The notes under the pieces: generated by a model
What the model was told of the DNA's origin: nothing
Databases searched by the model: none
The model's input: the letters and a program-made list of their open reading frames with translations, nothing else
Part shown: piece by piece, positions 22,574 to 50,322 of the stretch
Position numbering within the stretch: the stretch's first letter is position 1
Layout: each line of letters opens with the position of its first letter
From: an archaeon
Lineage (GTDB): Archaea > SpSt-1190 > DYHY01
DNA: 64,000 nucleotides
Assembly (NCBI GenBank): GCA_037442745.1
Contig: JBBIPP010000004.1
Span: 1 to 64,000 of the forward strand
Direction: 5' to 3'
Translations under genes and position numbers: made by a program

Positions 22574-22964
22574 TCACCTGACGCGCCTTTCCATGTTTTC
22601 GGCAAGCTCTCTCCCTATCGGGGCTGGAACCTTCGCCCTTTTCTGGGAATCCCTCAACAGTATTAAAGGCTTGATATCTAGAATTGGTTTTCCCTGAAGG
22701 GCGTCAAGGCCGGATACCCTCAGAGTGTTGCCATCAATTTCCAAAAGTTTCGCTGTCGAGATCCCCAATTTGGTCGGAAGGGGCCTGTTGAAGGATAAGA
22801 CGACTATTATGTGGGAGAATCCGGAAAGCCCCCAGAGACCTGCCCAGTATTTTTTCCCGACAATTATTTCGACCGAGCAAGTCTCCACTTGATTGAAGCT
22901 TTCCGTGCTTTTGGAGACTTTCCCTATAACCCCAATCTTCCCAAGAACAATCCCTACCTGCCAT
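22574..22964 (-). pseudogene. trmO: tRNA t6A37 methyltransferase TrmO/TsaA, degraded
   Basis: GL.GFSHIIV and L.V.GLDA..G.PILDIKP present; central GVFATRSP segment missing; ATG at 22964 is out of frame by +1. Confidence 0.72.
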
Positions 22965-24189
22965 CTTCAATCTCCGCCGAAAGCCTTGCCTTGAAATCGG
23001 CGAGAATCGCGATGAAGCTCGCATATGCTTCGTATGGGTTCTTGATGTGAGCAAAATACGAATGGACGTCTCCGTCCCCGAGCCATTTCGTGCACATGTA
23101 GTAATAATGGTCGCTCGTCTGGAGAAGCTTCCAAACGCGCCTGTGCTCTGGCTTGCTGGTCTTTTTGACAAGCTCGCCAATTCCTTTGATCTCCTCGAAC
23201 GCAATCTGTTGCATCCTGTTGCCTAGCCAGGCTGAAGTGTCCCTCTCAAGATCCGCCCAAGAGATTGTCGAGTATTCAAAGACGTCTATTTCCCCAACTG
23301 GTTTGAACTTTTCGACAAGCTCAGTCGGTTTGGAAAACGATAGCTGGGGATAGTCAAGGATTTTTTCCGGAAGCTTTTCAACGAAGGAGAATATCCCGGT
23401 GTCCTTCCACTGGTGCTCTCCGAATGTCTCGAAATCAATGCAGATGTTCGCAAAATCCCCGGTTGTCTCAGAGAGCCAGGCAGAATATTTCTCGGCTGTC
23501 AGGGGCCACTCGTTCCACCACCTAGCGGAGAACCTGTATCCAATGTCGTCTGAGAGGCGGTAGTTCCTCAGAAGCGCCATTATTCCGGGGGAGCCTTTGA
23601 CCGAATAGAGGTGGTTCGGGCTCTTCCAGCCGTGGAGAATCCAGTCAATCCCTTCAGTGTAAATACCCTTGTATCCGAGGCCTGCGACAGTCTTTGCAAT
23701 TGCGTTGTTGAAAATGAATTCCGTGTTCCTGAAAATTTTCGGGCTCTGCCCGAACAATTCCCCAATCCTGTCCCTATGCTCAATTATCTGGTCGACGAAT
23801 TCTTCCCTATTGTCCCCAAAGAGGCTTGAGAGCGAGTGGTAATATGTTTCGTCAATGAATTCGACCGCGCCGGTGTCCGAGAGATGCCGAAAGTTTTCCA
23901 AGACTTCAGGGGCATATTCCTCTGCCTGCTCAATGAAAGTTCCTGTGAGGGAGAAAGCCATCTTGAACCTTCCCTTGAGCCGGTCGGCCTCCTTCAGGAG
24001 AATGAATGTTGCCGGGAGATAGCACTTTTCAGCAACCTTCCTGAAAATCTTCCTGTTCGTTTCCGAGTCAAAGTAGACCGATTCCAGTCTGTCTGGAGCT
24101 ATCCTACCTGAAGGCAGGAGCTTTCCCGGGGAGAGGAAAACAGTTCTTCTTGGCTGGTGGACTTCGAACTCTAGGGAAATTGAGACCAT
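22954..24189 (-). CDS. GH57 alpha-amylase
   Basis: FEVHQP, CYLPA, ETYYHSL, FRNTE, LSDDIGYRFS, DFETFGEHQW, LQTSDH.YYM. Confidence 0.94.
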   Translation of the reverse strand: MVSISLEFEVHQPRRTVFLSPGKLLPSGRIAPDRLESVYFDSETNRKIFRKVAEKCYLPATFILLKEADRLKGRFKMAFSLTGTFIEQAEEYAPEVLENFRHLSDTGAVEFIDETYYHSLSSLFGDNREEFVDQIIEHRDRIGELFGQSPKIFRNTEFIFNNAIAKTVAGLGYKGIYTEGIDWILHGWKSPNHLYSVKGSPGIMALLRNYRLSDDIGYRFSARWWNEWPLTAEKYSAWLSETTGDFANICIDFETFGEHQWKDTGIFSFVEKLPEKILDYPQLSFSKPTELVEKFKPVGEIDVFEYSTISWADLERDTSAWLGNRMQQIAFEEIKGIGELVKKTSKPEHRRVWKLLQTSDHYYYMCTKWLGDGDVHSYFAHIKNPYEAYASFIAILADFKARLSAEIEDGR

Positions 24190-24214
24190 TGGGAAAGACA
24201 GGCCGGTTTCAGCT

Positions 24215-26098
24215 TTAAATCTCTATTCTTCTTTCCGGTAGTTTCCTGCCGTCAATGAGAACGCCTCCGTCAGAACTTATTTTCAGATGGCAGGACCTTC
24301 CCGCTATTTTTCCAACCCGCTCTATTTCGCCGAATTCCCCGTTCCTCGGAGAGAAAGATATTTCCCCTTTCCTAGGGTCTGGCGTTATTCCGAACACGCA
24401 GTCGTCAAATATTCTCGGGACAATTGAAGAGCTCCACGATTGGGTTACGGCCCCTTGCGGATTCCCCTCCCCGTCGTAGAGCTCATCTAGGGAGGCAAAG
24501 CACCTTTTTCCGAGATTTCCAGAAAGGATTTTCAAATATTCCTTGCCTTTCCGGTCCCGGCCAAGCCTGAACTCTGAGAGGGACATTAGGGCTGTTGTCA
24601 GGTTCCAGACAGCTCCAGTGTGATAGCCGGAACCGTTGAAATTGCTGTTTCTTCTTGAGGCCGTCCTTACTCCCCAAGAAGTTGAAAATTCCCCCGACTC
24701 TAGGATGTCTAGCGCGTCCAGGCACGCCTCCTTTCCCTTTTCCGGGATTTCTGAAAAAGCGAGGCCGAACAGTACGTTTGACGAAAGGATATTCTCGCTG
24801 AATCCCCCCAAAGTGTCGAGGAAAAGACCATTTTCAGGACTCTTGAAACTTTCAAAAGCCCTCTCAATGAGAGCCCTTCCTTTAGATTCGAAAGACTTGT
24901 CCCCGAGAAGAATTCCTCCCTGCCTCAAAGCTTCCCCCCACAGGAACTGGATTTCAATTGCTCTTCCGCTCCTCTCAATCGAATCCATCCAAGTTGTCCA
25001 ATGGAGAAGCGGTTCAAAGCAAGATCCCCGGTCAGTTTCCGAGAATCCGTCTGAATCTACATCGGTTTTTCCAAAGAACTCACACGCCTTTGAAATTCGC
25101 CCGAGGTCAATTTCGCTTCCCCCAGACCATTTCCAAAAATCAATTGCGGAAAGAACGAAGAGCGGAGTTGTGTCAGCGCCGGAATAGTCGGTTTTCCCCG
25201 CAAAGTTCGGGATGCACCCGTCCTTCCTTTGGGATTCGCCGATTTTTTTCAGGAAATTGTCGGCGAGGGAATATTCCCCCGCCCTTGAGAGCGCAGGAAT
25301 TGAGATGCAGGCATCCCTTGTCCAAAACTCCGTGAAATATGGAAAGCCAGCAAAATAACCGCGTTCAGAGGAAAATCCCCTCGCCGCAGAAATTGCGGAA
25401 TTTCCGAGTTCTCCGATATTTCCCATTCCGAAATAATGTATTTTTGGGGAGTTTCCAGTTCTCGGAATTAGAGATTGCCCGAGAGCTATTGAGAACCCGC
25501 ACTCATTTTCTGGGAAAGACCCTTTCAGCCTTATCACAAGGCAGTTCTGGGGGCTCTCGTTGAAATATTTCCATCCAACTTGTTCAGAGACCTCCCCCGG
25601 ATAATGGATTTTCTCAAAGCTCTCTGAAATTGAAAACCCGGACAATCCCGATATTTCAATCCTCCTTTCTTTTGACCGGGATTCTGCCATGAGAACCCCT
25701 CCATTGAGGGAAACTAATTTTCCAGGACAAGCAGTCATGTTATCAGACGCCCTTCTCATGTTGATTCCGAGTTCTATTTCCCAATGAGCTTTCTGTTTCT
25801 TTGATTTTGCTAGAGCCCCGAAAAAAAGCCCGCCTTCTTTCCTTTCAATATGGGAATATTCCGAAAAATCCCCGCCTAAATAGGATATTTTCGCTTTGCA
25901 ATCGGAAAGACTGCCTGAAAATCCCGAGAAATTCCCCGGCGATAGCCAAGTTTCCCCGCATTTGAACGCCCAGTAATCGAGTATTTTGTCAGAGCAGTCC
26001 CACAAGCCCATCCATTTTGAGCCGAATCCGCCGTTGTTGAACCTGAAATAGAACTTCCCCTCGCAGGGAATCAAGTGGCAGATTGACTTGTCTAGCAT
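24215..26098 (-). CDS. Amylo-alpha-1,6-glucosidase (glycogen debranching enzyme)
   Basis: AGFPYF..FWTRD, G.IPN, ADTTPLF, TWMDS, GRAIEIQ, YHTGAVW, QSWS. Confidence 0.88.
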   Translation of the reverse strand: MLDKSICHLIPCEGKFYFRFNNGGFGSKWMGLWDCSDKILDYWAFKCGETWLSPGNFSGFSGSLSDCKAKISYLGGDFSEYSHIERKEGGLFFGALAKSKKQKAHWEIELGINMRRASDNMTACPGKLVSLNGGVLMAESRSKERRIEISGLSGFSISESFEKIHYPGEVSEQVGWKYFNESPQNCLVIRLKGSFPENECGFSIALGQSLIPRTGNSPKIHYFGMGNIGELGNSAISAARGFSSERGYFAGFPYFTEFWTRDACISIPALSRAGEYSLADNFLKKIGESQRKDGCIPNFAGKTDYSGADTTPLFVLSAIDFWKWSGGSEIDLGRISKACEFFGKTDVDSDGFSETDRGSCFEPLLHWTTWMDSIERSGRAIEIQFLWGEALRQGGILLGDKSFESKGRALIERAFESFKSPENGLFLDTLGGFSENILSSNVLFGLAFSEIPEKGKEACLDALDILESGEFSTSWGVRTASRRNSNFNGSGYHTGAVWNLTTALMSLSEFRLGRDRKGKEYLKILSGNLGKRCFASLDELYDGEGNPQGAVTQSWSSSIVPRIFDDCVFGITPDPRKGEISFSPRNGEFGEIERVGKIAGRSCHLKISSDGGVLIDGRKLPERRIEI

Positions 26099-27927
26099 TT
26101 TCCGAATTCCTTTTCAGCCCTCTTGCACGCAATTTCGTACGCGGAGACATAATTCCCTATCTGTATTTCCCAGTCAAGCGCCTTTATCATCTCAAGCGCG
26201 TTCTTTTTGACCTCTTCCAGCTCTTCCTCCGAAAGATTGGCGAGAGTCTCCAAAATCGAAGCTATTTCCGAAGAAATCTGCTCGTCAGTCTTCCCAAGAG
26301 TCTCCACAACGCTCACTCCGGGAACCTTTCCGGGCAACGGCTTTCCGAACCTGGTCGCAATGAACTTTCCGAATCCAGAATAGTCGGTTGTTATTGAAGC
26401 GTTCCCGGAGACTGCGGCCTCAACAGGAGTGTAGCCGAATGGCTCGTACCTTGATGGGAAGACTCCAATGTCGCAACCGGCCATCACCTCGTCATATTCT
26501 AGGTTGAGGAGCCCGTCCCCCGGCTTTAGATACGTCGGGTAGAATATTATCTTGACTCTTGTCCCCTTTCCGTTCGAGAGGCCCTCGGATGAGATTCTCG
26601 AGAGTATTGCGTCTCCGGAATAGTTCAGGTCAAAGGCAGAGTTTTTCGCGTTCCCAAAAGCGACAATGTTTTTCCGTAGCGCGGCTATTTCCCTGAACGC
26701 CTTGTCGCTCTCAGCCAGTTTCAGGATTTCGTTCAAGGGGAGTTTTTTCCCGGACACCTCCTCCGCATTCTCCCTCATTCTGTCGACAATTCCGAGATTC
26801 AGGAGAATCTCCTTATTCGGGCCGGAAATGTTTGACGGGACGAAGATGAGGAAATAGAGCTCCTTTGGAAGCCTCCTTTTCAGGAGCTTTCCTGCGGCTG
26901 AGATGAAATAGTCGATTCCCTTGTTCTCGAACTCGTATCTGGCAGTGAGATATATGAAAAGGGCGTTGTCCGTTCTTGGAACCTCCTCTTCCTGGAGAAA
27001 CATTGCATGAACAAGGTTCTCTATTTCCTCGCGCTTGGGCGCCCGCTTCTCCCGGGAAATCGCGCCTTTTGAGAGGGAAATCCCGTTCAGGGTTATCACG
27101 TCAGGCTTCTTTCCGAGAATGTATTCAACTTCTCTTCCGACAGTTTCGCTAACTGTTGTGAAGACGTGGGCGTTTTTCGCGCACGCAACCTCTAAAAAGT
27201 GCTTGCCTTCTAACTTGAACCTGTAAGCTTCGTCAGGTTGCGCTGTTTTTCCAGTCGCAAGCCCTTCTTCCACAACTCTCGATAGGTTCTCGCCGAAGGT
27301 CGTTTTGCTCCGCCCCAGAACTGTCGCATGCGTTGTGAAGACGGTTCCTGTGGGGACTTTTCTCGAACGGAGATAAAGAAGGCCAGCCCCTGATATCCAT
27401 TCGTGGAAATGGCAAGAAACTCTCTTTCCGCGGAAACGGGTCCCCTCAGATGTCAGAAGAGCCTCAATTGTCACTCCGACTGCAGTCGACCAAATGACGT
27501 TTTCGTTGAAATCCCCAGACATGAAAATGGAGTCAACGCCCCAATCCTTCCAGAGAGTGTGCTTGATTGCGTTTATTTTGAAGTCCTTTTCCTTGCCATA
27601 AGGGACGCTCTCTTGCCTTTTTCCGAATTCCCAAGGATCAACAAGAATTAGCTTTGCTCCGTTCCCGTTCGTCCATTTTCCGAGCCTGCATTTTATTGAA
27701 TGCTCTTTCTCAAGAGAACTGAACACCTTTGCGAAATCCTCAGGAACAGGGAGCTCCTCTTGGAATTCCTCCTTTGCGGAAACAAGGTCATAGCGCCCGA
27801 AAAGGAAATAGTTTTCAATTCCGAATTTCCCTATTGCGCTAGCTGATTTTGTTTTGAGAACAGTGTATATTCCACCGACTTTCCGGCCAGCTTCAGAAGA
27901 TATTTCAAAAACGAAATCAGGAGCCAT
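26092..27927 (-). CDS. Glycogen synthase (GT3, eukaryote/Bacteroidetes type)
   Basis: FE.S.E...KVGGIYTV, HFHEW, FTTHATVLGR, RYEFENKG.D, GVFPSRYEPFGYTP. Confidence 0.92.
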   Translation of the reverse strand: MAPDFVFEISSEAGRKVGGIYTVLKTKSASAIGKFGIENYFLFGRYDLVSAKEEFQEELPVPEDFAKVFSSLEKEHSIKCRLGKWTNGNGAKLILVDPWEFGKRQESVPYGKEKDFKINAIKHTLWKDWGVDSIFMSGDFNENVIWSTAVGVTIEALLTSEGTRFRGKRVSCHFHEWISGAGLLYLRSRKVPTGTVFTTHATVLGRSKTTFGENLSRVVEEGLATGKTAQPDEAYRFKLEGKHFLEVACAKNAHVFTTVSETVGREVEYILGKKPDVITLNGISLSKGAISREKRAPKREEIENLVHAMFLQEEEVPRTDNALFIYLTARYEFENKGIDYFISAAGKLLKRRLPKELYFLIFVPSNISGPNKEILLNLGIVDRMRENAEEVSGKKLPLNEILKLAESDKAFREIAALRKNIVAFGNAKNSAFDLNYSGDAILSRISSEGLSNGKGTRVKIIFYPTYLKPGDGLLNLEYDEVMAGCDIGVFPSRYEPFGYTPVEAAVSGNASITTDYSGFGKFIATRFGKPLPGKVPGVSVVETLGKTDEQISSEIASILETLANLSEEELEEVKKNALEMIKALDWEIQIGNYVSAYEIACKRAEKEFGKC

Positions 27928-39212: not shown

Positions 39213-40069
39213 AAGGAAATCCTGTGCTTTTTTATTTCCCGGAATTTTCCGGAAAAAAGGAGGCTTTCCAATTCCTTTCTGTTCCTCCTAATTGCGCGGA
39301 CAAGCTGCTTTTCCGTCAATAGTTTCCTTTCAATGAGAAAATCCGATATCGGGACGCCCTTTTTTTTAGAAAGCTTCCAAACCAATTCAGGATGCAAATA
39401 GCCCTCTTCAAAAGGGATTCCCATGACCTTTTCAACATACCCAACTAACCCGAGAATTACCATGTCGTCAGAATCGCTCTTAACCTTGGCCGAAAAGCAT
39501 TCCCCAAAAGCTGCCGAGAACTTTTCGACCATTGTCTTTGGGGATAAGAAGAAATCAGGAATGTTCGTTTTCTCCCCGTCGCAACAGAGGTTAGATATCG
39601 GGATTGCGACTGGGACACCTTTCCTTATTGATGAGAATATCCCCAGTATTCCTCCCAAGGGAAATCTCCTGCATGTGAGTGGTCTCTCATTGTGTATTCC
39701 GCAGAGTCCGTCCGCTCCGATAAAGGGGCAACTCGAATAATAGAAAAGCCACTTTGCAATTATTGGGGGTTGTTTTTTGTCCTTTGGAATAATTGCAGTT
39801 CCCGGCTCGAATTTTCCCTGTAGGCCCAATTTTTCGAGGTTTTTCTCAAGGCCCTTTTTTTCCCAATCAAAAATCATTACTCCTTTCAGGCCCCTGCCAG
39901 GAAGGGTTCTGTAAAATGGGCCTGTATTTCCGCGGATTACTTCGAGTTCCCTCTCGCGGGATACTGCCAAATCCCGACAGCATTTTCCGCTCCGGTCGCA
40001 TCTGAACGGAACCGGCTTTTGGAAATATGGCCCAAGAACCCTTTTTTCAAGGAATTCCCGAATACTCAA
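39209..40069 (-). CDS. YkgJ/CxxCxxCC cysteine-cluster protein
   Basis: FRC..SGKCC, CPF....LCGIH..RP.TCRRFP. Confidence 0.85.
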   Translation of the reverse strand: MSIREFLEKRVLGPYFQKPVPFRCDRSGKCCRDLAVSRERELEVIRGNTGPFYRTLPGRGLKGVMIFDWEKKGLEKNLEKLGLQGKFEPGTAIIPKDKKQPPIIAKWLFYYSSCPFIGADGLCGIHNERPLTCRRFPLGGILGIFSSIRKGVPVAIPISNLCCDGEKTNIPDFFLSPKTMVEKFSAAFGECFSAKVKSDSDDMVILGLVGYVEKVMGIPFEEGYLHPELVWKLSKKKGVPISDFLIERKLLTEKQLVRAIRRNRKELESLLFSGKFREIKKHRISF

Positions 40070-40977
40070 AGAGAGGATGTCATTGCCTCCGGAATTGACT
40101 CAACGAGCCACTGGGGAAGAACCCGTTTCCTTTTCTGAAGGCACACGTCTCCGGCAGCGCCGTTAACCCAGGCAGCGGCAGAGCAAGATTCGAATGCTTT
40201 CTCCCCGTCAGACTGCGCCCAGAAAGTTGCCACAATTCCTGCAAGAGTGTCTCCAGTTCCCCCGACGGTCATCTCAGGGTTATGCCTCCGGTTCTCCTCG
40301 AGCTTCTTTCCGTCAGTTATTATGTCAACTCCGCCCTTTAGGAGTATTGTAACCTTTGCCTTGTCAGCGGATTTCTTCACAAATTCTTTCCTTTTTTCAA
40401 ATTCCTTTGCGGGGGGGATTTTCCCGAAAATTGAGAGAAATTCCTTTTCATGGGGCGTTATTATTGATTTTTTCGGCACATATTTCGCCTTGAAAGCGTC
40501 CGCGTCAAGGACAATGTTAGCTTTCATTTTCTCAAGTTTTTTCAGGAGCTCTTCGACTGCCAAAATCGTCTCTTTTCTGTCTCCAAGACCGTTTCCGACA
40601 ACAACAACGTCCGCTTTTTCAGCCTCTTTCAAAATATAGTCAATATGGGTGGAATTGAAATAGTCCCCGGAAAGCTTGAGAGTTATCAGGTGGGGCGCAT
40701 ATGCGTTTATTGCCCAGGCAACATTTTCAGGCGCTGCAATTTTCACAATATCCGCTCCTGCCGCATATGCTGACAGGGCAACCAATGCCGGAGAACCGAC
40801 ATATTCTGGCGATCCTCCGACAACAAGAATCCGTCCATAGTCGCCCTTATGGTTTGAAAAGTTTCTCGGCTTTATTACTTGCTGTATGTACTGCCTTGTC
40901 ATCTGCGTTTTTCTCCTTTCGGTCAAGTTGCCGGGCGCATTAGAAAACGACCCGTTTTTCATCCCTTTTTCGGACAA
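40066..40977 (-). CDS. nnrD: ADP-dependent NAD(P)H-hydrate dehydratase
   Basis: HKGDYGRILVVGGS..Y.GSP, GNGLG, DADA, TPH..EF, LLKG, GGTGDTLAG; start may be 40962 or 40902. Confidence 0.93.
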   Translation of the reverse strand: MSEKGMKNGSFSNAPGNLTERRKTQMTRQYIQQVIKPRNFSNHKGDYGRILVVGGSPEYVGSPALVALSAYAAGADIVKIAAPENVAWAINAYAPHLITLKLSGDYFNSTHIDYILKEAEKADVVVVGNGLGDRKETILAVEELLKKLEKMKANIVLDADAFKAKYVPKKSIITPHEKEFLSIFGKIPPAKEFEKRKEFVKKSADKAKVTILLKGGVDIITDGKKLEENRRHNPEMTVGGTGDTLAGIVATFWAQSDGEKAFESCSAAAWVNGAAGDVCLQKRKRVLPQWLVESIPEAMTSSL

Positions 40978-41088
40978 ATTCTTTTTAAAAATAGTGGTTT
41001 TATTGTCAATTTTAGCTGGAAAAGCCCAATATTTTCATATTATTGCCGATAAAAAGAACAAAAAATAAAAAAGAACTGAATAATCAAT

Positions 41089-41301
41089 TTATTTGTCTTC
41101 TTTTGATGCGCTCATTGCGAAAACAATTAGCCCGACAATTCCTGCGGCAACAAGCCCGTATGTAATGAATTGGCCTGAGAAGTTTATTCCTTCTAGGCCG
41201 AAAATAGTTTTCCATCCGGGCGTTGTAACAACCAGAAGCAATACTATTCCAAGAGCCCCTATCAGTACCAGTTTCTTGTCAAAAATCGGTGCGTCTCCCA
41301 T
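41089..41301 (-). CDS. Small 2-TM membrane protein (homologous to the C-half of 41818..42357)
   Basis: P.W..IFG......I..G.V.G.VGLI...MS motif shared with that protein. Confidence 0.75.
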   Translation of the reverse strand: MGDAPIFDKKLVLIGALGIVLLLVVTTPGWKTIFGLEGINFSGQFITYGLVAAGIVGLIVFAMSASKEDK

Positions 41302-41308
41302 ATTGTTT

Positions 41309-41327
41309 CTCTCTCTCTCTCTCTCTC
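41309..41327. repeat. (CT)9 microsatellite in the ribosome-binding region
   Basis: On the coding strand AAGG(AG)n lies 7 nt before the ATG at 41301. Confidence 0.85.
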
Positions 41328-41422
41328 CTTCATTTTGTTTTATCTACATTTCTTGACCGGCTTCGCCGGATCTCACTTCGTTCTAGTTCGGAACCTCGGA
41401 TTTTCTCTCCTAGGCTCTTAAT

Positions 41423-41743
41423 TTACTCTTTGTTCGCGTTGTTGTTAACGAAGGCATTAACAACAAGGACAATCAGGACAATTATCAGAATAACTCCGGC
41501 TTTCCCTAGTAGCCAAGACAAAAATTCACCGACAATTGGCATGCTTGCGAGGAATAGGGTTGCGACAAGGGCGGATACTGCCGAAATTGCGGCAGCAAGC
41601 CAGACTTCATCAATTACTCCGGAGCTCTTGAGGACAACGAACATCACCAAGAAAATCAGGACGAACGGCAATATTACCGAATAAACTCCCTGCTGTACTG
41701 CCTGATCAATCACTCCTTCAATTGCATTCGCAAATAGGTACAT
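41423..41743 (-). CDS. 3-TM membrane protein, ILPF family (homologous to the N-half of 41818..42357)
   Basis: QG.Y..ILPFVLIF..MF.VL...G..., VG.FLS...GK motifs; start taken at MYLF. Confidence 0.75.
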   Translation of the reverse strand: MYLFANAIEGVIDQAVQQGVYSVILPFVLIFLVMFVVLKSSGVIDEVWLAAAISAVSALVATLFLASMPIVGEFLSWLLGKAGVILIIVLIVLVVNAFVNNNANKE

Positions 41744-41817
41744 GTTCTTTTTTTCCCTCACTTTGTTTTATCCATATTCTTTGGTTCGGAACCTCGGGTT
41801 TACGCCCATCGGCTCCT

Positions 41818-42357
41818 TTAGCTTCCATTTGGCTTGTCGTCGCCTTTGCTCATAATTATTGCGACTAGGCCAACTAGCCCTGCGACAACTCCGACTGTCA
41901 CAAGGGCGTTGTTGTCAATGTTAAAGTCCGCTCCGAATAGTATCTGCCATGTGTTCGGGCTCGAATTGAGCGCGAATACAACAAGTAGGACCGCTCCCCC
42001 GAAAATGACTAGCCCGTATTTCCACTCTTCCCCTTTTCTTATGAAATCGGTCGCGTTTTTCATGACATTGTAGACGAACATTGTTATCATCAGGGTGAAC
42101 ATCAGGACAATTATTGTCAGAAAGCCCTTTCCGGAGAATATTGAGAGGAAACGGCCAACCTGATAGACTCTTGCGAAATAAAGCACGAATAGGCCGAGAA
42201 TCATTGAAACAATTGCGTCAATCCCAGGCTTCCCTCCGAGAATCTTCGCCTGCTGGAGTATTGCATAGATTACAAAGAACGCCAATAGGAAAGGCAGGAC
42301 ATAGTCGAAGAACCCCTGCGCAACCAGATTAGCTATTGTTTCGTCAACGAATGCCAT
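41818..42357 (-). CDS. 5-TM membrane protein, ILPF family
   Basis: GFFDYVLPFLLAFFVIYAILQQAKILG...IDAIVS. Confidence 0.8.
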   Translation of the reverse strand: MAFVDETIANLVAQGFFDYVLPFLLAFFVIYAILQQAKILGGKPGIDAIVSMILGLFVLYFARVYQVGRFLSIFSGKGFLTIIVLMFTLMITMFVYNVMKNATDFIRKGEEWKYGLVIFGGAVLLVVFALNSSPNTWQILFGADFNIDNNALVTVGVVAGLVGLVAIIMSKGDDKPNGS

Positions 42358-42382
42358 TTTTGTATTTCATTTCCCCCATTTT

Positions 42383-42721
42383 CTATATATTATGCTTTTC
42401 CCCGTCAATATACCGCTCAATAAGGCCTCCCAAATGTATGTGCTTGGCATAGACCCGGATTGCCCATAACTCCCTCGCAATTGAGAGTAGCAAGAGGACA
42501 AAGAGCCAAGGAAAGACAAATGTCCGGAATATTGATAGAAGCTCGGTGACTCTCGAAGCTTCCCCGGAAAAGAAGGAAACAACAACCAAAATGGACAGGA
42601 GAACAGTTGCAATTGTAGATGCGATCGCCAGCCTGTCCGAACCCTCCTTGAACTGCGCGAAATTTGTGTGGGTGCCTTGTGAGCCGGTTTTTGGTTGTTT
42701 TTTTGCCATTTTATTTTTCAA
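42383..42721 (-). CDS. 2-TM membrane protein (paralogue of 47567..47923)
   Basis: LLS.ARELWAIRVY..H motif. Confidence 0.75.
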   Translation of the reverse strand: MKNKMAKKQPKTGSQGTHTNFAQFKEGSDRLAIASTIATVLLSILVVVSFFSGEASRVTELLSIFRTFVFPWLFVLLLLSIARELWAIRVYAKHIHLGGLIERYIDGEKHNI

Positions 42722-43235
42722 ACATTTTTATGTCTTTGAATTGGGACTTGCTCGGAGCATCTGAGCCCAAGAACGAGCCGATATTGTCAAGATAAGTAAG
42801 TCCAGAGTCAATTTCCATTCCTGCTTTGTTGATGTCTTGGGCGAACCGGAATCCCCATAGGAAATGCCCAATTGTCCACCAGAAAGCCATAAGAATGAAT
42901 ATCAGAGTCAGCATTGGTATCCAGACACCAGAACCGGTTGCCGAGCTTCCGAGAAAAGTCTGGAGCATCTGGACTACCTGCCAATATACCCCGAACCGAG
43001 CCCCGAAAAGGGAGAATATTATTGCAATCCACATTGCAGTTGTTTTCCTGAAAAAGCCCATCAGATAAATAAAGTCGTAGAGAATGAAGAACATAAGGAC
43101 GCCCGGCAGGATGTATGCGAAAATAACAGTTGACATCGGACTCCCTGTTGTTCCCAAAAGAATGTTTATTATTGAGAGGACGAACCCTCCAATGTCGTTA
43201 ATTACGCTAACAATTGTCCCTGCATCAAATGCCAT
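42711..43235 (-). CDS. Tandem membrane paralogue, copy 1
   Basis: YILPGVLMFFILYDFIYLMGFFRKTTAMWIAIIF core with a unique C-tail; SD GGAGG. Confidence 0.85.
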   Translation of the reverse strand: MAFDAGTIVSVINDIGGFVLSIINILLGTTGSPMSTVIFAYILPGVLMFFILYDFIYLMGFFRKTTAMWIAIIFSLFGARFGVYWQVVQMLQTFLGSSATGSGVWIPMLTLIFILMAFWWTIGHFLWGFRFAQDINKAGMEIDSGLTYLDNIGSFLGSDAPSKSQFKDIKMFEK

Positions 43236-44210
43236 TGTCTTTTCCTCCTATTATTTCTCACCCAATTTTTCAAGCCGTGTCCCAATTGTCTTGAGTAAAT
43301 GAAGTGCAGCCCCCTGTTTGTGCTGTTCGGTTGCGACTGCTTGAGCGAACCGGAATCCCCATAGGAAATGCCCAATTGTCCACCAGAAAGCAATCAAAAT
43401 GAATATCAGAGTCAGCATTGGTATCCAGACACCAGAACCGGTTGCCGAGCTTCCGAGAAAAGTCTGGAGCATCTGGACTACCTGCCAATATACCCCGAAC
43501 CGAGCCCCGAAAAGGGAGAATATTATTGCAATCCACATTGCAGTTGTTTTCCTGAAAAAGCCCATCAGATAAATAAAGTCGTAGAGAATGAAGAACATAA
43601 GGACGCCCGGCAGGATGTATGCGAAAATAACAGTTGACATCGGACTCCCTGTTGTTCCCAAAAGGACGTTGATTATTGTTAGCAAAAACCCGCCAATATC
43701 GTTCAGAAAGCCATTTATTGTCCCAGCATCCAATGCCATATCTTCTTTCTCCTTTTATTTAGATCCCAATTGTTCTAGACGGCTTCCAATCCTGTCAAGA
43801 ACACCGATTGCACTCTCTATTTTGTCGCTTTCCTTGTAAACAGCACTGGCAAACCGGAATCCCCATAGGAAATGCCCAATTGTCCACCAGAAAGCCATAA
43901 GAATGAATATCAGAGTCAGCATTGGTATCCAGACACCAGAACCGGTTGCCGAGCTTCCGAGAAAAGTCTGGAGCATCTGGACTACCTGCCAATATACCCC
44001 GAACCGAGCCCCGAAAAGGGAGAATATTATTGCAATCCACATTGCAGTTGTTTTCCTGAAAAAGCCCATCAGATAAATAAAGTCGTAGAGAATGAAGAAC
44101 ATAAGGACGCCCGGCAGGATGTATGCGAAAATAACAGTTGACATCGGACTCCCTGTTGTTCCCAAAAGGACGTTGATTATTGTTAGCAAAAACCCGCCAA
44201 TATCGTTCAG
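42843..44210. repeat. Three near-identical ~315-360 bp cores at an exact 504-bp period
   Basis: CCGGAATCCCCATAGG at 42846, 43350 and 43854. Confidence 0.95.
43251..43739 (-). CDS. Tandem membrane paralogue, copy 2
   Basis: Same core with LIAF variant and a unique C-tail; SD AAGGAG. Confidence 0.85.
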   Translation of the reverse strand: MALDAGTINGFLNDIGGFLLTIINVLLGTTGSPMSTVIFAYILPGVLMFFILYDFIYLMGFFRKTTAMWIAIIFSLFGARFGVYWQVVQMLQTFLGSSATGSGVWIPMLTLIFILIAFWWTIGHFLWGFRFAQAVATEQHKQGAALHLLKTIGTRLEKLGEK

Positions 44211-44243
44211 AATGCTTACGAATGTCCCCGAATTTATTGCCAT
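43755..44243 (-). CDS. Tandem membrane paralogue, copy 3
   Basis: Same core with unique N- and C-termini; SD AAGGAG. Confidence 0.85.
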   Translation of the reverse strand: MAINSGTFVSILNDIGGFLLTIINVLLGTTGSPMSTVIFAYILPGVLMFFILYDFIYLMGFFRKTTAMWIAIIFSLFGARFGVYWQVVQMLQTFLGSSATGSGVWIPMLTLIFILMAFWWTIGHFLWGFRFASAVYKESDKIESAIGVLDRIGSRLEQLGSK

Positions 44244-44401
44244 TTTCTCTTTTCTCCTTTTTTGATTATTTATTCGGCCAGTTCCCTTTATTTTCTCTTT
44301 CTAGCATTTATAGTTTGCCGATTTAAGGGCAGTGTCCAAATAACAGCAACCCCAAAATCCTTAATGGTATTACCACTCGATAATTTATATAGTTTCCCAT
44401 C

Positions 44402-44962
44402 TTATTTGAACTTGCTGAAAGCTGGAGCCCAGCCAGAACTTCTCTCAGCCTTTTGGGAATTGACAATTGACTGCTTGTTTGAGCCCTCCCTGTTCCCGAG
44501 CCGTGCAGCAGTCTGACCAATCAGGGTCAATATCTGCCCGCCCCCCGAGAGCTCAGCCAAGCCCTTGGAAGCTGCCCTGGCAGTGACAAACCCTATGAAG
44601 AAATTGCTCATGAACCAATAGACAATCACGAAAGTGAAGACTGTTATGAACATTGCAATGAATAGTCCTGTTTCCCCGAAAATCGGCTCTAAAAAGAGGG
44701 AGTTAACGAATGTGTTATAGTCGTCATAAAATCCGAAATGGGCGAACATTAGGGCGAAGACCGCAGCCATTACTGTTGCGGTTATTTTCCTGAAAAACCC
44801 CATCAGATAGAAGAGGTCTTCCAGCGTGAAAAAGACGAGGAGCGCAGGAATTGCATAGAGGAAAATTATCTCATACCAAGGCTGTCCCTTGCCCCCGAAA
44901 ATCATGTTGAAAATTGTCCAGAAGAATTCCGGGACATTGAAATAAAGTTCCTCTCCTGCCAT
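44402..44962 (-). CDS. Divergent paralogue of the tandem membrane proteins
   Basis: YAIPALLVFFTLEDLFYLMGFFRKITA...FG.Y...W....F..GF...L..IG....LG. Confidence 0.82.
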   Translation of the reverse strand: MAGEELYFNVPEFFWTIFNMIFGGKGQPWYEIIFLYAIPALLVFFTLEDLFYLMGFFRKITATVMAAVFALMFAHFGFYDDYNTFVNSLFLEPIFGETGLFIAMFITVFTFVIVYWFMSNFFIGFVTARAASKGLAELSGGGQILTLIGQTAARLGNREGSNKQSIVNSQKAERSSGWAPAFSKFK

Positions 44963-46800
44963 TATTTGTTCCCCCCGAATTTCGAGCCCAAGTTCCTGAA
45001 GAATCCGCCAATCGAATTCTTTGCCGCCCCCAGCACTCCTGCTGGAACAACCCCGATGTCCTTGTTAATGTTGGCGTATTTCCACTTTTCCTGCTGGTTA
45101 GGAGTCATGGTTTTTCCTTGCCAAGGATTCACCGACTTAATCCGGGTTGTCCAAGAGTCTTTTGCCTTTTCAACAGAGCCACCTATCTCGTCAGTAACAT
45201 CCCCGAACTTGTCTTTTCCTTTCGAGACTTTCTGGGAAATCTTGCCATATGCGCTCGTGCTCTTGATCATTCCGAGGATGAATTTTGGAAGAACGGTTAC
45301 TGGGAGAGTGAGATAGAGGAAAAGCACCCTTATTCCGATTGAAGTCACTATAAGGAGAAGGTAGAAGAGCGCGGCAACTATTGCGTTCATGAAGAGGTCC
45401 AGTGGGTTTGCTGGGACGGCTGTCCCTGAAAGGGGTTTTGCCAAGGAAACAATATAGAGGGTTCCCAAGAACTGGAATGCGAGCCGAATAAGGGAATTTA
45501 GGACAGGTATTGGTCCTCCGTTGAAGGGCAAAAGTATCCAAATAACTACTGGTCTTGGAAGGAAGACTGCCAGGAGAAAGACAGACTTTTCCACAGCGAA
45601 TGCGACAATCTGCCACATCCAGAACGCCCAAAAAGTCGCGGGGATTATTGATGCCCAGATGTTGACGCAGCTCGTCGGCTCCCTTACCGGAATATATTCG
45701 TAATAGGACGCAATTCCGAAAATATTCATGCTTGTTGCAAAAGCCACTACAAGAAGAAAGATCCACACATATCCGAGCTCAATTACTGAAAATGCCCTGA
45801 AAACGTCGTATATTGTGGATTTTATAGCTTCCCTTCCGGCAATGGCGCCCTTCTTCGCTCGGAGGCGCTCTGACGCGTCATTGCTTTTGCTTGCGCCGTC
45901 ACCGGCGCCTCCGGCAACTCCTCCCATCAGCCGATCGTCAACTCCGGGAATTCCGGTAGATTTGTCCAAGAACTGGTCGGCAAGATGCGTTGCTTTCTGG
46001 ACGAAACTGAGCTCGTCATAGTCGCTGTCCGCAGTTGCCGCGACATCGAGAATTCTCGAGTATTCAGTATCTCCTATTGTGCTTTGGATTACTTCCTTTG
46101 CAAATGTTGCCTTCCAATTGTCCGGCTCGAGGAATTCTTTTTGCAAGTCCTCCGGAGGAGCGGCAAGGGTCTCGAAAAGTATTATCAGGAAAAGAATCCA
46201 TCCGAAAAGAATCCATGCGGCAATGTTTGTCGATAGGGTGAATATCACAAAAAAAAGCGCAGCAACTATCTTTATCCAAGACGCATTTTTGAAAGCGAAA
46301 CGCCCTAGAATCATCAGGACAATCCCGATTCCGAGGAAAACATAAGAGAGTTCTTTGCTCACATTTATTAGGGGCCTGTCATAATCCGGTCCGCACGCAT
46401 TCTCAAGCTCGTTTTCCGAAATCCCATAGCTCTCGACAACCCTCGGGCCAAAGTTCTCCGGCGGTTTAGCTGGCAGATTGTCCCATTCCCTTGCGGATTG
46501 CGTTATCTGCCCGAAAAGTGGGGCAATTCCTTTGTCCCAGAATGTCTGAAGTATGCCAAAGAAGCTGTTGTCGCCTACCGAAGAAAAGTCGAGGCAAAGG
46601 CCGGTTGTTGTGCAGGATTCGGGGGTTCCTCCCGTAAGGCCGGACTCTCCGGAAGGATCTCCCCCGTCAATCGGGGAAAGAAGAGGGTCCTCTGAGAATG
46701 CCGGGGCAGGCGAAAGAGCAAGAATGAAAACAAGGGTTAGGATGGGGAAAATTTTCCAAATGCTCGAGAATTCCCATCTCATTTTCCGGGAAGCCCCCAT
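44962..46800 (-). CDS. Large secreted multi-TM membrane protein (~610 aa)
   Basis: Signal peptide (PAFS), Cys-containing exterior segment, about 9 TM helices, basic cytoplasmic tail; start taken at MGASRK. Confidence 0.78.
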   Translation of the reverse strand: MGASRKMRWEFSSIWKIFPILTLVFILALSPAPAFSEDPLLSPIDGGDPSGESGLTGGTPESCTTTGLCLDFSSVGDNSFFGILQTFWDKGIAPLFGQITQSAREWDNLPAKPPENFGPRVVESYGISENELENACGPDYDRPLINVSKELSYVFLGIGIVLMILGRFAFKNASWIKIVAALFFVIFTLSTNIAAWILFGWILFLIILFETLAAPPEDLQKEFLEPDNWKATFAKEVIQSTIGDTEYSRILDVAATADSDYDELSFVQKATHLADQFLDKSTGIPGVDDRLMGGVAGGAGDGASKSNDASERLRAKKGAIAGREAIKSTIYDVFRAFSVIELGYVWIFLLVVAFATSMNIFGIASYYEYIPVREPTSCVNIWASIIPATFWAFWMWQIVAFAVEKSVFLLAVFLPRPVVIWILLPFNGGPIPVLNSLIRLAFQFLGTLYIVSLAKPLSGTAVPANPLDLFMNAIVAALFYLLLIVTSIGIRVLFLYLTLPVTVLPKFILGMIKSTSAYGKISQKVSKGKDKFGDVTDEIGGSVEKAKDSWTTRIKSVNPWQGKTMTPNQQEKWKYANINKDIGVVPAGVLGAAKNSIGGFFRNLGSKFGGNK

Positions 46801-46819
46801 ATCTGTCTTTTTTAGCTCT

Positions 46820-46840
46820 TTCCAATATAAATAATGTCTC
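46820..46840. promoter_or_regulatory. Putative bidirectional TATA element between the divergent membrane operons
   Basis: AATATAAATA between the starts at 46800 (-) and 46900 (+). Confidence 0.45.
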
Positions 46841-46899
46841 CCGAGTGGGAAAATTGGCAAAGTATAAAAGTAAGATTTTCCCGAGAGTCCCAGTCAAAC

Positions 46900-47550
46900 A
46901 TGGCGAAAGGCAGGGGATTATTTTCAAGAATTGCCGGGCGAAAGGGGGAAGGCGACAACGATGTTTTCATGTATGCTTTCATTGTTGTCTTGCTGGTTGC
47001 TGTAGGGACTTATGCAAGCAATTCAGGTGTCGGAGGGGTTTTTTTCAGCGCAATTAACAACGCATTTTCCAAGCTCGGTCTGCTTACTTCCTCCTCGTGC
47101 CCTTTCTATAGCAATGTTAATACTGCCGCATGGGCGTGCATTGTTGTTTTCGGGATAATCCCATTCATTATTGTCTATTACTTTACATTTGATGCATTGA
47201 GCTTCACTTTCATGACAACGCGGACAAAGGGAATGCTTTCCCTCGGAGTTTCAATGATTGCAACAGTTCCAATGAACGGACGCTCACTTATTGCGAGCCT
47301 CAGCGCTACTCTTGAGCAGTTTACAGTACTGCTCCTTCCTCCAATTGGTCAAGGAGGACTTGGTAACTGGGGCGGATTCCTTGCAATAATGCTGATAATG
47401 GCGCTTATTTCAGGTTTCTTGGGTCAGCTTGCTCTTACTTCCCAGATGGCGAATGCAGCAGTCCTGTCCCTGCAGGAGACAATATGGGGATACAGGGCAA
47501 TGAACCAGATAGGAAAAGCGGTTACTGCGACTGGAAAGAAAGAAGGTTAG
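46900..47550 (+). CDS. Membrane paralogue of the tandem family
   Basis: IIPFIIVYYFTFDALSF.FM..RTK..LSL core and C-terminal M..IG......GKK helix. Confidence 0.78.
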   Translation: MAKGRGLFSRIAGRKGEGDNDVFMYAFIVVLLVAVGTYASNSGVGGVFFSAINNAFSKLGLLTSSSCPFYSNVNTAAWACIVVFGIIPFIIVYYFTFDALSFTFMTTRTKGMLSLGVSMIATVPMNGRSLIASLSATLEQFTVLLLPPIGQGGLGNWGGFLAIMLIMALISGFLGQLALTSQMANAAVLSLQETIWGYRAMNQIGKAVTATGKKEG

Positions 47551-47566
47551 GGAGCAGTTTCCTGAA

Positions 47567-47923
47567 ATGGCGCCCGCAGTGAAAAAAGGGGAAAAGAAAA
47601 AGCCCTTTGAGACTGCATCAATTTCCCTTTTTCTCGAGCATCTGGACGGCTTTCTTTTATCAGTCCTCAAATACGTCCTCTCGGCAATCCTCCTTTTCTC
47701 CCTTGCAATTGCCCTCTATTCATTCTTCTCCGGAAACGCATGGTCCGACTTTTCAGTTACGCAGGCCGGAGCGAACACAATTTCCGCGGTTGTCGCCCTT
47801 TCGTTGATAATTTTCTGGAGGGAGCTACGGGAACTCCGGCTCTGGCTTGAGGGAATGTCAGAACACCATTCAAGGCATACTTATTCCCGCTTGGATTATT
47901 CCGCAAAAAGGAAGGGGGCATAA
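47567..47923 (+). CDS. 2-TM membrane protein (paralogue of 42383..42721)
   Basis: IIFWRELRELRLW....EHH motif. Confidence 0.75.
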   Translation: MAPAVKKGEKKKPFETASISLFLEHLDGFLLSVLKYVLSAILLFSLAIALYSFFSGNAWSDFSVTQAGANTISAVVALSLIIFWRELRELRLWLEGMSEHHSRHTYSRLDYSAKRKGA

Positions 47924-48672
47924 TGCCAGTTTTTTCTCTCGGGAAATTGGAGAAACTGCAGTTCGTTTCACTTGCCTTGCTTCTCCTCCTTTTGGCTCCT
48001 GCACATTCCGCCACTTCGGGCGCCGCGAACACAGATCTTGTTTCAAAAGGAAGGGGCTTTGCGGACGAGCTCTTTGGCCCGATGTTTGCGCTCCTTGAGC
48101 CTTTCGGATTTGGGGCGAACAACCAGTATTCAATGATCCAATTCCTTGCAGCATTCACGCTGATATTCTTCCTTGTGAAGGAAATTACGCCCGGAACCTC
48201 TGACTTTGCCGCATTCATTGCAACAATGCTAGGAGCTGGCGCAATAAACTTCATTTTCCGGCTGGACTGGTACACTTTCTTGATACATTTCTCCCCTGCT
48301 CTCCTGATGTTTTTCTTCCTTCAGGACATCCTCGCTAGGTTCTCCTTCATGTTCCGGAGCACGGCCAAATGGATTGCCCTCTTCGGAATGATTCTTGTCT
48401 TCTACACAGACTATGCGCTCTTCACTGACAACGGAATTTTTGGATTTTTCTTCAACAAACTGTTCGGGGAAGGGTATTCGTTTTTCCTCGAGCCTTGGTC
48501 AATAATACTTTTCGCGCTTCTTGCGACTCTTGTGCGGATGTTCGGTCTCATTGAGAAGGTCTTCAAGTCTGAGAGCGCTAACCAATACAGGTACCAGATG
48601 CAGGCGGCAGTGAACATTATTCAGCAGGAAGTTGTAAAGGGAGGAATGAAGGACCTTGCAAAGAAAAAGTGA
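47923..48672 (+). CDS. Signal-peptide multi-TM paralogue
   Basis: FSPALLMFFFLQDIL..FSFMFRSTAKWIALF repeats the family motif. Confidence 0.78.
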   Translation: MPVFSLGKLEKLQFVSLALLLLLLAPAHSATSGAANTDLVSKGRGFADELFGPMFALLEPFGFGANNQYSMIQFLAAFTLIFFLVKEITPGTSDFAAFIATMLGAGAINFIFRLDWYTFLIHFSPALLMFFFLQDILARFSFMFRSTAKWIALFGMILVFYTDYALFTDNGIFGFFFNKLFGEGYSFFLEPWSIILFALLATLVRMFGLIEKVFKSESANQYRYQMQAAVNIIQQEVVKGGMKDLAKKK

Positions 48673-48705
48673 GGTTTTTATTCCGGAACAGGAGGGCGTC
48701 TTGCA

Positions 48706-49317
48706 ATGGACCTAATAATCCTCATAATAACCTTGGTCTGCCTAACTACAATAATAAAGCCATTCACATTCCCCGGAGACAGCAATTTCGAGGACGCTTC
48801 GTCAACTCTAGCCATTTTCCTCGGAATCCTCGCCTATTTCTACGGAGTCGATTTCTTCCCGGCAACCTCGTTTTTAGCGCCCCTCCACATTATAACAATA
48901 GGCCTGGTGAACGCATTTTCAATAATAGATCTTTTCATACTGACTATTCTTGGAACCCCCCTGACACTGAACCTCATTTTCGTTGTAATAGTCCCCTCAA
49001 TGGTTGTCTATAAGATTGCAAAGGAGCTCTTCTCATATACGGAGATACTCTCAAAGACAACCGAGAACTTCATTGCATCAATAGTCGCTTTCATCTCAAT
49101 GGTTGCGGCAGTCAGGGGCGACTTTAACCTGATTCAGATTGTCTGGAGCGCTCTCACATATTTGGTGAGCTATGTTACCGGTCAGAGCTCATTATACCTG
49201 ATGACTGTCTCAATAACGGTTATTTCGGTAATTGTTCTTGCAGTTGCCATTGCATTCGAGACAATGACTGTCAAGTTCGTCCTTCTTCTTTCTAACGGTT
49301 CCGCAGAAGCAGAATAG
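48706..49317 (+). CDS. Multi-TM paralogue
   Basis: IVPSMVVYKIAKELFSYTEILSKTTENFIASIV is a variant of the family motif. Confidence 0.75.
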   Translation: MDLIILIITLVCLTTIIKPFTFPGDSNFEDASSTLAIFLGILAYFYGVDFFPATSFLAPLHIITIGLVNAFSIIDLFILTILGTPLTLNLIFVVIVPSMVVYKIAKELFSYTEILSKTTENFIASIVAFISMVAAVRGDFNLIQIVWSALTYLVSYVTGQSSLYLMTVSITVISVIVLAVAIAFETMTVKFVLLLSNGSAEAE

Positions 49318-49449
49318 ATTTAGAACTATTCTTAGGCCTTTAATAAAATAACACATCATTTGGCCTTTGTAAAGACAATAAAAAGAAAACTTTAAAAGCA
49401 AGATTGAATATATTACTATTAAATAACAAAAAAGGATTGATGATGAAAA

Positions 49450-49992
49450 ATGGCAAAACCTGAAAACGCACGTGAGTTGTGGGGGGAAATGTTCGTTAAC
49501 AATGAGGGTATAATTAAGAGGTATGTAAATGATCTTGCAAACTCAGCCAAAGAGTTTCCTTATTATGGAGGTTTGGCGGGATTTTTGGGAGAAGGCGCTT
49601 CAAGAATAGGCAAGGCAGTAAGTTCTTATGCAAGAGGTCCTGTGGCAGCTAAAAAGCCGGCAGAAGGGCCGGCAGAAGGGCCGGCAGAAGGGCCGGCAGA
49701 AGGGCCGGCAAAAACCGATGACGGCCCAGGCGGAGACGTGAAGACTCTCGGCTATAAGGAGATACTTAATCGCCTTGAGGAACTTGCGAGGGGGCAACAG
49801 AATTCTCCTTCCATCCCGTTCACTGCGAAAACTCCCGCTAGTTCGCTCTACAAACCCCAACCGAATGAACCTTCAAAGCTAAATAAGGGACTGGAATATC
49901 TGGCGTTTGTTCTTGGCCCGGACTTTGAAAGTTATGTTCCCCAGCTAAATGATCTCGGAGCACGTGGAGTTATAAAGACGTACCCAATCTAA
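49450..49992 (+). CDS. Hypothetical protein with (PAEG)4 repeat
   Basis: ORF with an AT-rich leader and an internal 12-bp tandem repeat. Confidence 0.7.
   Translation: MAKPENARELWGEMFVNNEGIIKRYVNDLANSAKEFPYYGGLAGFLGEGASRIGKAVSSYARGPVAAKKPAEGPAEGPAEGPAEGPAKTDDGPGGDVKTLGYKEILNRLEELARGQQNSPSIPFTAKTPASSLYKPQPNEPSKLNKGLEYLAFVLGPDFESYVPQLNDLGARGVIKTYPI
49657..49710 (+). repeat. 12-bp tandem repeat CCGGCAGAAGGG x4.5
   Basis: Perfect in-frame tandem copies. Confidence 0.95.
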
Positions 49993-49998
49993 ATTTCA

Positions 49999-50322
49999 TC
50001 AATCCAAGAAAAACGGGATGGAAGAAATCTCCCCTCCCGCCCGCCTTTTCTTTTCAATTGTGAATGTTCCTAGAAATTCTTCCGGAACCCGGAACTTACC
50101 GAAATGCAGGCCCGAATCAACATATCCCCAAGAAATTATCGCCGCTTCGAACGCCTCGACAAATTTTCCCTCTTTCAGGAAATGTTTTGCGTCCGAAAAA
50201 TAGGACTTGGCCAGAAGAAGAACTTGTCTTGTCTCTTCGGACTCCTCAACAATTTCAACCTTTTCAATGAACGAGCCAGTCCGTTCAACTTCTCGCCGGG
50301 CAACCTTTTCCATCCTGTTCAT
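49999..50322 (-). CDS. DUF357 domain protein
   Basis: A.SY.SDAKHF...G..V.AFEA...SWG..D.G; downstream of dph5. Confidence 0.85.
   Translation of the reverse strand: MNRMEKVARREVERTGSFIEKVEIVEESEETRQVLLLAKSYFSDAKHFLKEGKFVEAFEAAIISWGYVDSGLHFGKFRVPEEFLGTFTIEKKRRAGGEISSIPFFLD

Follow-up and report, generated by a model that had tools for sequence, protein, structure and literature searches.

Here, we describe a tandem triplet of membrane-protein genes in a stretch of archaeal DNA of 64,000 nucleotides (nt), namely positions 1 to 64,000 of the forward strand of contig JBBIPP010000004.1 (assembly GCA_037442745.1), which is referred to below in its full length as the window. All three genes are encoded on the minus strand. 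Copy 1 (W1, 42711-43235) is a complete open reading frame (ORF) of 174 amino acids (aa) with a long tail, AQDINKAGMEIDSGLTYLDNIGSFLGSDAPSKSQFKDIKMFEK, while copy 2 (W2, 43251-43739) and copy 3 (W3, 43755-44243) are complete ORFs of 162 aa each. The ORFs are separated by gaps of 15 nt, and each is preceded by an AGGAG-type ribosome-binding site. A repeat search returned a 300-nt unit three times, with 99-100% identity and start-to-start spacings of 504 and 504, which agrees with the exact 504 base pair (bp) repeat of three genes noted in a first-pass annotation of the sequence. Tandem Repeats Finder gave 0 rows for the array because the 504-bp period exceeds its longest period, 500.

In a codon-phased alignment of the copies, columns 78-392 delimit a core of 315 nt (105 codons), which comprises the transmembrane helices and corresponds to minus-strand positions 42844-43158 in copy 1, 43348-43662 in copy 2 and 43852-44166 in copy 3. 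W1 and W3 are identical at 315/315 core positions, and W2 matches both at 312/315, as expected from the earlier description of about 105 codons that are nearly identical even at synonymous sites. A cluster of three substitutions private to copy 2 is located at 43392-43397 (minus strand; columns 343, 345 and 348), where CTT ATG is replaced by TTG ATT and hence the peptide LMAF of copies 1 and 3 by LIAF. An extra tract common to copies 2 and 3 only covers columns 34-77 (NDIGGFLLTIINV; 43663-43706 with its partner 44167-44210, minus strand). Here W2 and W3 are identical at 44/44 positions, W1 and W2 at just 32/44, and both observations together reproduce the mosaic sharing that had been reported. 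The C-terminal tails (42711-42843 in copy 1, 43251-43347 in copy 2 and 43755-43851 in copy 3, minus strand) are specific to each copy, comprise 31-43 residues and are predicted to form cytoplasmic amphipathic helices; the N-termini differ as well. The divergent tail peptides listed in the first-pass annotation are all present, and the tail DNA of the three pairs of copies is identical at 43/95, 45/95 and 54/97 positions. Within each core, an ORF of 89 aa is found in antisense.

The window stems from a short-read metagenome bin, and a repeat of 315 nt is longer than typical reads. An assembly artefact, i.e., a collapse of divergent copies or an array made or mis-ordered by the assembler, has to be considered in such a case, all the more as no listed contig spans the array and a second order of its units fits the contig graph. 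We examined the depth of Logan contigs from two public runs, X1 and X2, which belong to one study. Their contig graph agrees with that predicted by the assembly; a third run, X3, yielded no contig for this stretch, and no RNA run was among those listed. The flanks of the array have depths of 13.6 and 12.9 in X1 and of 8.76 and 10.2 in X2. Three junction pieces are present, each unique and complete. Depths of 16 and 13 (X1) and of 8.5 and 12.8 (X2) were recorded for the unique pieces 43131-43374/7 and 43679-43881. A 74-nt piece common to copies 2 and 3 (43635-43708) has a depth of 25.3 (X1) and 20.2 (X2), about twice that of the flanks, and the lone core contig of 317 nt, which coincides with 42844-43160 in copy 1 and 43852-44168 in copy 3, has a depth of 34.8 (X1) and 24.5 (X2), about 2.6 times that of the flanks in each run. 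The ratio of unique to two-copy to three-copy depth is thus approximately 1:2:3 in both runs, which backs three copies, and the array is therefore not a collapse. Collapsed divergent copies would yield several core contigs or listed differences, but there is one core contig and it carries no alternative letters. The single listed difference in the core, a synonymous one found in X2, is 44121 G>A (TAC to TAT, read on the coding strand); A is the state of the sister-species copies introduced below, and the site is therefore taken as a population variant inside the homogenised core. The copy-2 cluster at 43392-43397 is absent from all listed Logan pieces. In relatives, one contig starts (L009) and one ends (L010) inside the core, in keeping with an assembly interrupted by a repeat. 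The same three-gene order is found in L008, a contig from another metagenome, and an independent ENA assembly contains a full-length protein, P0002, that joins the third N-terminus to the third tail (N3 with T3). As the sister species and P0002 have the same pairings as the window, we prefer the assembled order, and we regard an artefact as very unlikely.

A metagenome scan of 64 candidate stretches provided four family loci. One of them, L008, is syntenic with the window: it carries K3 (partial, 1-210), K2 (226-720) and K1 (733-1260), followed by the same downstream genes, i.e., the four small membrane-protein genes, nnrD and a CxxC gene. Its flanking genes are 87.5-91.2% identical to those of the window, and it therefore derives from a sister species. 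The third sister copy, K3, is represented by the partial sequence L008:1-210 and by the full-length P0002 (95% identical). At the ends of the genes, each window copy has its counterpart in the sister species. The tail DNA is identical at 102/133 (W1-K1), 77/97 (W2-K2) and 80/97 (W3-K3) positions, as opposed to 39-54 of 95-97 in non-orthologous pairs. In a tail tree of 35 columns, W1 groups with K1 (support 96/75) and W2 with K2 (85/91), the W3-K3 pair being unresolved and no branch starred. Since the ends are orthologous between the species, the copies must have arisen by duplication before the lineages separated, and the view of the triplet as old paralogues is borne out by these one-to-one tail orthologues.

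The core exhibits the opposite pattern. When variable sites of W1, W2, K1 and K2 were classified, 37 core sites grouped by genome, none by ortholog and 29 otherwise, whereas the ends gave 1 site by genome, 42 by ortholog and 49 others (core versus ends, Fisher's exact p = 4.4e-22, a descriptive figure as the sites are linked). For all six sequences, which can be compared from column 281 onwards, the ratio of sites by genome to sites by ortholog is 16/0 in the core and 1/30 in the tail. In the second core half, K1, K2 and K3 agree mutually at 176-177/177 or 113/113 positions and with the window copies at 153-154/177. The first core half shows 106-108/138 identical positions between W and K copies and is not homogenised in the sister species, where K1 and K2 share 113/138. 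The 3' limit of identity lies within a few bases of column 392 in both species, where the last transmembrane helix ends. In columns 34-77, where W2 and W3 are identical, K2 and N3 agree at 43/44 and cross-species W-K pairs at 38-39/44; this N-terminal tract of copies 2 and 3 underwent conversion in each species separately, and W2 has acquired its private three-base cluster since then. The third sister copy was also considered as the donor of the window core; its agreement in the first core half (79/95 versus 69/95 and 74/95) is too weak to claim this.

Identical cores could in principle arise without conversion, either by recent independent duplications or by an extreme constraint at the nucleotide level, e.g., an overlapping RNA or antisense gene, and the long antisense ORF of 89 aa in each core might be quoted in favour of the latter. 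The data contradict both. Recent duplications do not fit with the orthologous ends (42 sites by ortholog versus 1 by genome), which place the duplications before the split. With regard to constraint, the 37 sites at which the cores of the two species show fixed differences are for the most part synonymous when read in the minus-strand frame, and an Rfam scan of 40000-50000 remained blank. The second core half shows 22 synonymous and 1-2 non-synonymous differences between W and K copies, with a synonymous divergence (dS) of about 0.97. Core dS is 0-0.05 among the window copies as compared to about 1-2 between species. Synonymous differences between W and K together with the low dS within the window exclude nucleotide-level constraint; from the between-species dS it follows that the evolutionary rate of the core is an ordinary one, although the copies change in concert. 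An origin without conversion is accordingly the least credible of the explanations considered here, and we give it hardly any weight. Paralogues are closer to each other than to their orthologues, the duplication precedes the split, and constraint alone does not account for the pattern. Judged from these alignments, the cores evolve in concert by gene conversion in both lineages; the converted tracts differ in length between the two and share their 3' boundary. The homogenisation of the cores by gene conversion, as postulated in the first-pass annotation, is well founded in the contrast between core and end sites.

A related arrangement was observed in G002, a genome of another genus of the same family. 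It carries at least two tandem copies, at L029:1777-2746 (G002:C32, contig end) and L028:1-614 (G002:C19), whose last 55 core bases are identical while their tails differ; the contig breaks off inside the core. This hints at the same boundary in a third lineage.

The ends of the genes, although divergent between the copies, are not the hypervariable termini that had been assumed. Between orthologues, the ratio of non-synonymous to synonymous divergence (dN/dS) of the tails is 0.04, 0.03 and 0.15, with a tail dS of 0.6-2.9, such that the tails are nearly unchanged between the species at the protein level. The corresponding values for the N-termini are 0, 0.05 and 0.10. Paralogous tails show a dN of 0.7-1.0. 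The distinct ends are kept, as these ratios indicate, by purifying selection, and that part of the first-pass annotation which saw the ends as being kept distinct remains valid. By direct reading, a family-wide tail pattern, L..IG..LE.L, can be recognised, in which hydrophobic positions recur every 3-4 residues with variable residues in between.

The conservation of each tail also bears on two readings of what the triplet is for. As the main rival to the interpretation given below, we consider a mere dosage effect: the gene would have been triplicated for more of one abundant membrane protein, conversion would hold the cores identical, and the tails would be tolerated variants without separate roles. 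Identical cores make most of each protein the same, a genome of the same genus (G004) manages with one copy, and members of the family-level clade have between 1 and 3 copies. Interchangeable tails, however, would not lead one to expect that each of them is conserved between species (dN/dS 0.03-0.15 at a dS of 0.6-2.9), nor that the two species, and apparently a third lineage as well, have the same conversion boundary. Amplification for dosage only is hence regarded as unlikely. The second reading, a variable host-recognition cassette as proposed in the first-pass annotation, treats the tails as a set of alternative modules for the cell surface or for host recognition, among which the cell would swap or switch. 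The combination of a conserved core with different ends does resemble pilin or surface-antigen cassette systems, and many small-genome archaea of such kind depend on other cells. Yet the tails are predicted to be cytoplasmic, they scarcely change between the species, and all three genes are full-length with start, stop and ribosome-binding site. The repeat search found no inverted-repeat switch in 41500-45500, Pfam scans of selected ORFs across 22954-63671 revealed no recombinase domain, and no silent partial cassettes occur elsewhere in the genome, as all four matches are at the same locus. A programmed variation cassette is thus a highly improbable interpretation of this array.

Concerning topology, hydrophobic segments were found at residues 8-29, 32-63 and 98-129, with no lysine or arginine (K/R) in residues 1-14. 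In W3, the loops 28-36 and 88-104 contain 0 K/R, the loop 60-66 contains 2, and residues 128-162, which include the tail, contain 6; according to the positive-inside rule, the tail is probably cytoplasmic. A signal-like N-terminal segment precedes the first helix in nine homologues. An AlphaFold2 (AF2) model based on 28 sequences (predicted local distance difference test, pLDDT, 77.8) shows helices at 5-27, 34-59, 64-80, 83-95 and 97-100 and one continuous helix, 105-161, which runs from the membrane into the tail, giving four or five helices overall. A complex prediction for W3, W2 and W1 scored 0.00 in both runs; controls were not run, and the score bears neither way on binding.

The window belongs to a DPANN-type archaeon, as a member of a phylum that is probably Altiarchaeota; its genome is 1.14 Mb in size and 94.5% complete, and the window contains the archaeal markers L35Ae, Trm5 and DUF357. 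The protein family of the triplet is rare. Searches at E <= 0.001 returned 9 proteins among 5.77 billion and 33 representatives among 1.84 billion, 20 of which reach 1e-10. Within the phylum, it is present in 17/17 species genomes with 1-4 matches each. When 28 aligned members were compared with Pfam at E up to 1, no family was matched by more than 1/28. The best ESM Atlas score was 0.86, to unnamed clusters, and among weak Foldseek rows a comparison to export-gate (FliP/Q/R-like) proteins came up (8axk_D, E 4.4; 8axk_E, E 9.2; 7agx, E 7.3). None of the listed titles and abstract openings on archaeal gene conversion or on the double membrane of Altiarchaeota deals with the family, although no search was aimed at the family itself. 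Taken together, the searches indicate an orphan family of helical membrane proteins that is restricted to one archaeal phylum.

Two known groups were tried as candidates. Class III signal peptides consist of a short basic N-terminus, a cleavage site and a hydrophobic helix, and pilins and archaellins have a single N-terminal transmembrane helix. The triplet proteins were not assigned to the type IV pilins or archaellins, as residues 1-14 lack K/R, several hydrophobic segments are present and no pilin or archaellin Pfam match was obtained. Platform proteins of type II/IV secretion (T2SSF: PilC/TadB/TadC/FlaJ) were likewise rejected, given that there is neither a T2SSF match nor a linkage to a T2SSE ATPase in the genome of the window.

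The triplet is embedded in a locus of further membrane-protein genes. Upstream of copy 3, a spacer of 158 nt (44244-44401, minus strand) contains the TATA-like words ctatataaatt and ctataaatg as well as an AGGAG ribosome-binding site, and it is a possible promoter for the triplet. It is followed by a fourth, old paralogue of 186 aa (44402-44962, minus strand), which is not homogenised (35% identity, E 1.4e-19), has the YLMGFFRK motif in common with the triplet and is conserved beside the array in L010, L012 and L028. The first gene of the minus-strand operon encodes a polytopic membrane protein of 632 aa with a signal-like N-terminus (44962-46860). This protein has no Pfam or NCBIfam match. 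Homologues were found in 4/17 genomes of the phylum, all of family f1; it served as the sole query and diverges fast, so that absence elsewhere is not implied. Its AF2 model, built on 5 sequences, is unusable (pLDDT 36.6). In L005, L006, L024 and L028, too, a large membrane protein comes first and family members come after it.

Downstream of the triplet, four small membrane-protein genes of about 109, 179, 106-112 and 70 aa (41089-42709, minus strand) are syntenic in the sister species. One of these is listed as a 112-aa ORF starting from TTG at 42721, overlapping the end of copy 1 (42707-42721). Its start is more likely at 42709, to judge from the sister orthologue, which begins at the equivalent ATG (MAKKQPK...). 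Divergently oriented genes at 46834-48672 (plus strand) include distant full-length or partial paralogues of 238 aa (46834-47550) and 249 aa (47923-48672). Comparison of the family profile by hhalign gave a probability of 89% for the 238-aa protein (E 2e-6, 142 columns), 74% for the 249-aa protein (55 columns), 61% for the 179-aa protein and 6% for a protein of 203 aa. Otherwise the neighbours gave just a sub-threshold DUF5418 match and two weak PHROG matches (membrane protein; unknown), which point to no function.

Some additional observations were made in and around the locus. In two related loci, a T2SSE-domain ATPase of 760 aa is encoded 3-4 kb from the family members (L006:11126-13408 and L024:17323-19605), separated from them by coiled-coil or Gly/Pro-rich genes; in L024 (genome G001), short Gly/Pro-rich repeats of 21-45 nt are found at 16240-16707, within a gene of 345 aa that separates the family locus from this ATPase. 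The orthologue of this ATPase in the genome of the window, 62% identical, is located on another contig (G000:C6:71183-73426). The plus-strand operon of the window ends with a 180-aa protein (49450-49992) that carries PAEG peptides repeated in tandem (PAEGPAEGPAEGPAEGPA) and lacks transmembrane segments. Further away, 22954-27927 (minus strand) comprises a trio of adjacent genes of glycogen-type metabolism, whose products are a GH57 protein of 411 aa, a protein of 627 aa resembling amylo-alpha-1,6-glucosidase and a glycogen synthase of 611 aa. The segment 58362-63352 encodes a protein of 1312 aa that has a bacterial Ig-like (Big_13) domain and, after it, a ParA/MinD-type ATPase of 349 aa.

From the comparative data we conclude that the locus holds three real paralogues, whose duplication predates the split, whose homogenisation is repeated and restricted to a segment, and whose distinct ends are under purifying selection. 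The course of events is as follows. The triplication predates the split from the sister species. Recurrent non-reciprocal recombination between misaligned 504-bp units has since then overwritten the segment of transmembrane helices, and the conversion tracts share one stopping point, where the last helix ends; past this boundary, the copies are too diverged for heteroduplex formation. Selection retains the three different C-terminal amphipathic helices together with the shorter, different N-termini. As for function, we tentatively propose, as a real possibility rather than a probability, that the triplet encodes three isoforms of a single membrane subunit, which present the same membrane-embedded surface and different cytoplasmic tails, in a lineage-specific complex with the 632-aa protein and the older paralogues. 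Identical cores would let the isoforms take equivalent positions, while the tails might bind different partners or each other. The interchangeable subunits of one oligomer suggested in the first-pass annotation are likewise hypothetical. A more far-reaching version, in which they are isoforms of a core component in a membrane machine not described so far, is speculative and seems doubtful to us; such a machine would occur throughout this phylum and nowhere else, and would consist of the 632-aa protein together with diverged paralogues, up to eight in number, of one helical-hairpin family. The interpretation as a whole, in which the isoform proposal is the less certain part, we consider probable.

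A number of points weigh against this interpretation. The comparison relies on just one sister lineage, and the third copy of that lineage was assembled from two partial contigs and a protein record. No Logan record from X1 or X2 spans the whole array, and the same contig graph also fits the order N3-T2, N1-T3, N2-T1; the pairing of N-termini and tails in the assembly rests on the synteny with L008 and on P0002. Both runs come from one study, which may be the assembly's own source, so that they are not independent samples. G004, a genome of the same genus, has a single copy, and three isoforms are therefore not essential to the function of the family. Regarding the identity of the protein, the three copies gave no Pfam or NCBIfam match at E up to 0.1 and no PHROGs or PADLOC match at E up to 0.01. 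A sequence profile search of the PDB gave one row with E 0.69, Foldseek against the PDB gave no match at E up to 0.001, and VIA-align against 48,161 chains reached a best Z of 6.8 with none >= 8, all of them generic helical bundles. Finally, the hhalign links to other proteins of the locus are modest (61-89%, and 6% for the 203-aa protein).

A comparable division of genes into constant and variable parts is known from tandem arrays of archaellins and type IV pilins, which have a conserved hydrophobic N-terminal segment and a variable remainder and whose products are thought to co-assemble. The triplet resembles these arrays in being composed of adjacent paralogues with an identical or near-identical membrane or assembly segment and copy-specific parts. 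It differs from them in that its proteins lack a class III signal peptide (their first 14 residues contain 0 K/R) and have three or four predicted transmembrane helices, and in that the part which varies is a short helix at the C-terminus, probably on the cytoplasmic side.

Concerted evolution of prokaryotic genes has been surveyed by Wang and Chen (2018, PMC6053082), who report 19 bacterial and 7 archaeal genes, the archaeal ones all from methanogens. According to this survey, subunits of complexes or of homopolymers are frequent among the products of concertedly evolving genes, and cases of short duration often concern proteins of the membrane or the surface. As in concerted paralogues described there, such as tuf and mtrA (PMC6053082), the copies within one genome are closer to each other than to their orthologues and the duplication precedes speciation. 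By comparison, conversion in the triplet is limited to an internal segment of 105 codons with a sharp, shared 3' boundary, there are three copies instead of two, and the family is an orphan one from a DPANN-type archaeon. The time depth demonstrated for the triplet amounts to one species split only. The process itself is not new; this case adds the triple copy, the demonstration in two species with differing tract lengths and a shared boundary, and the new family.

The best-known member of the phylum has been reported to possess a double membrane. From an evolutionary point of view, the triplet is an unusually clean case of conversion and selection dividing a gene: the same transmembrane segment has been homogenised independently in two sister species, over tracts of different length but with one stop point, and each of the three tails has been conserved. 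If the machine version is true, the cell would use conversion to hold the surface by which the isoforms assemble in the membrane strictly identical, such that they would fit the same positions of a ring or lattice, and the coiled-coil-like cytoplasmic tails would recruit different partners. The orphan family occurs in all 17 sampled genomes, within a conserved locus that consists almost entirely of unannotated membrane proteins, and this locus is a reasonable target for studies of the envelope of these archaea.

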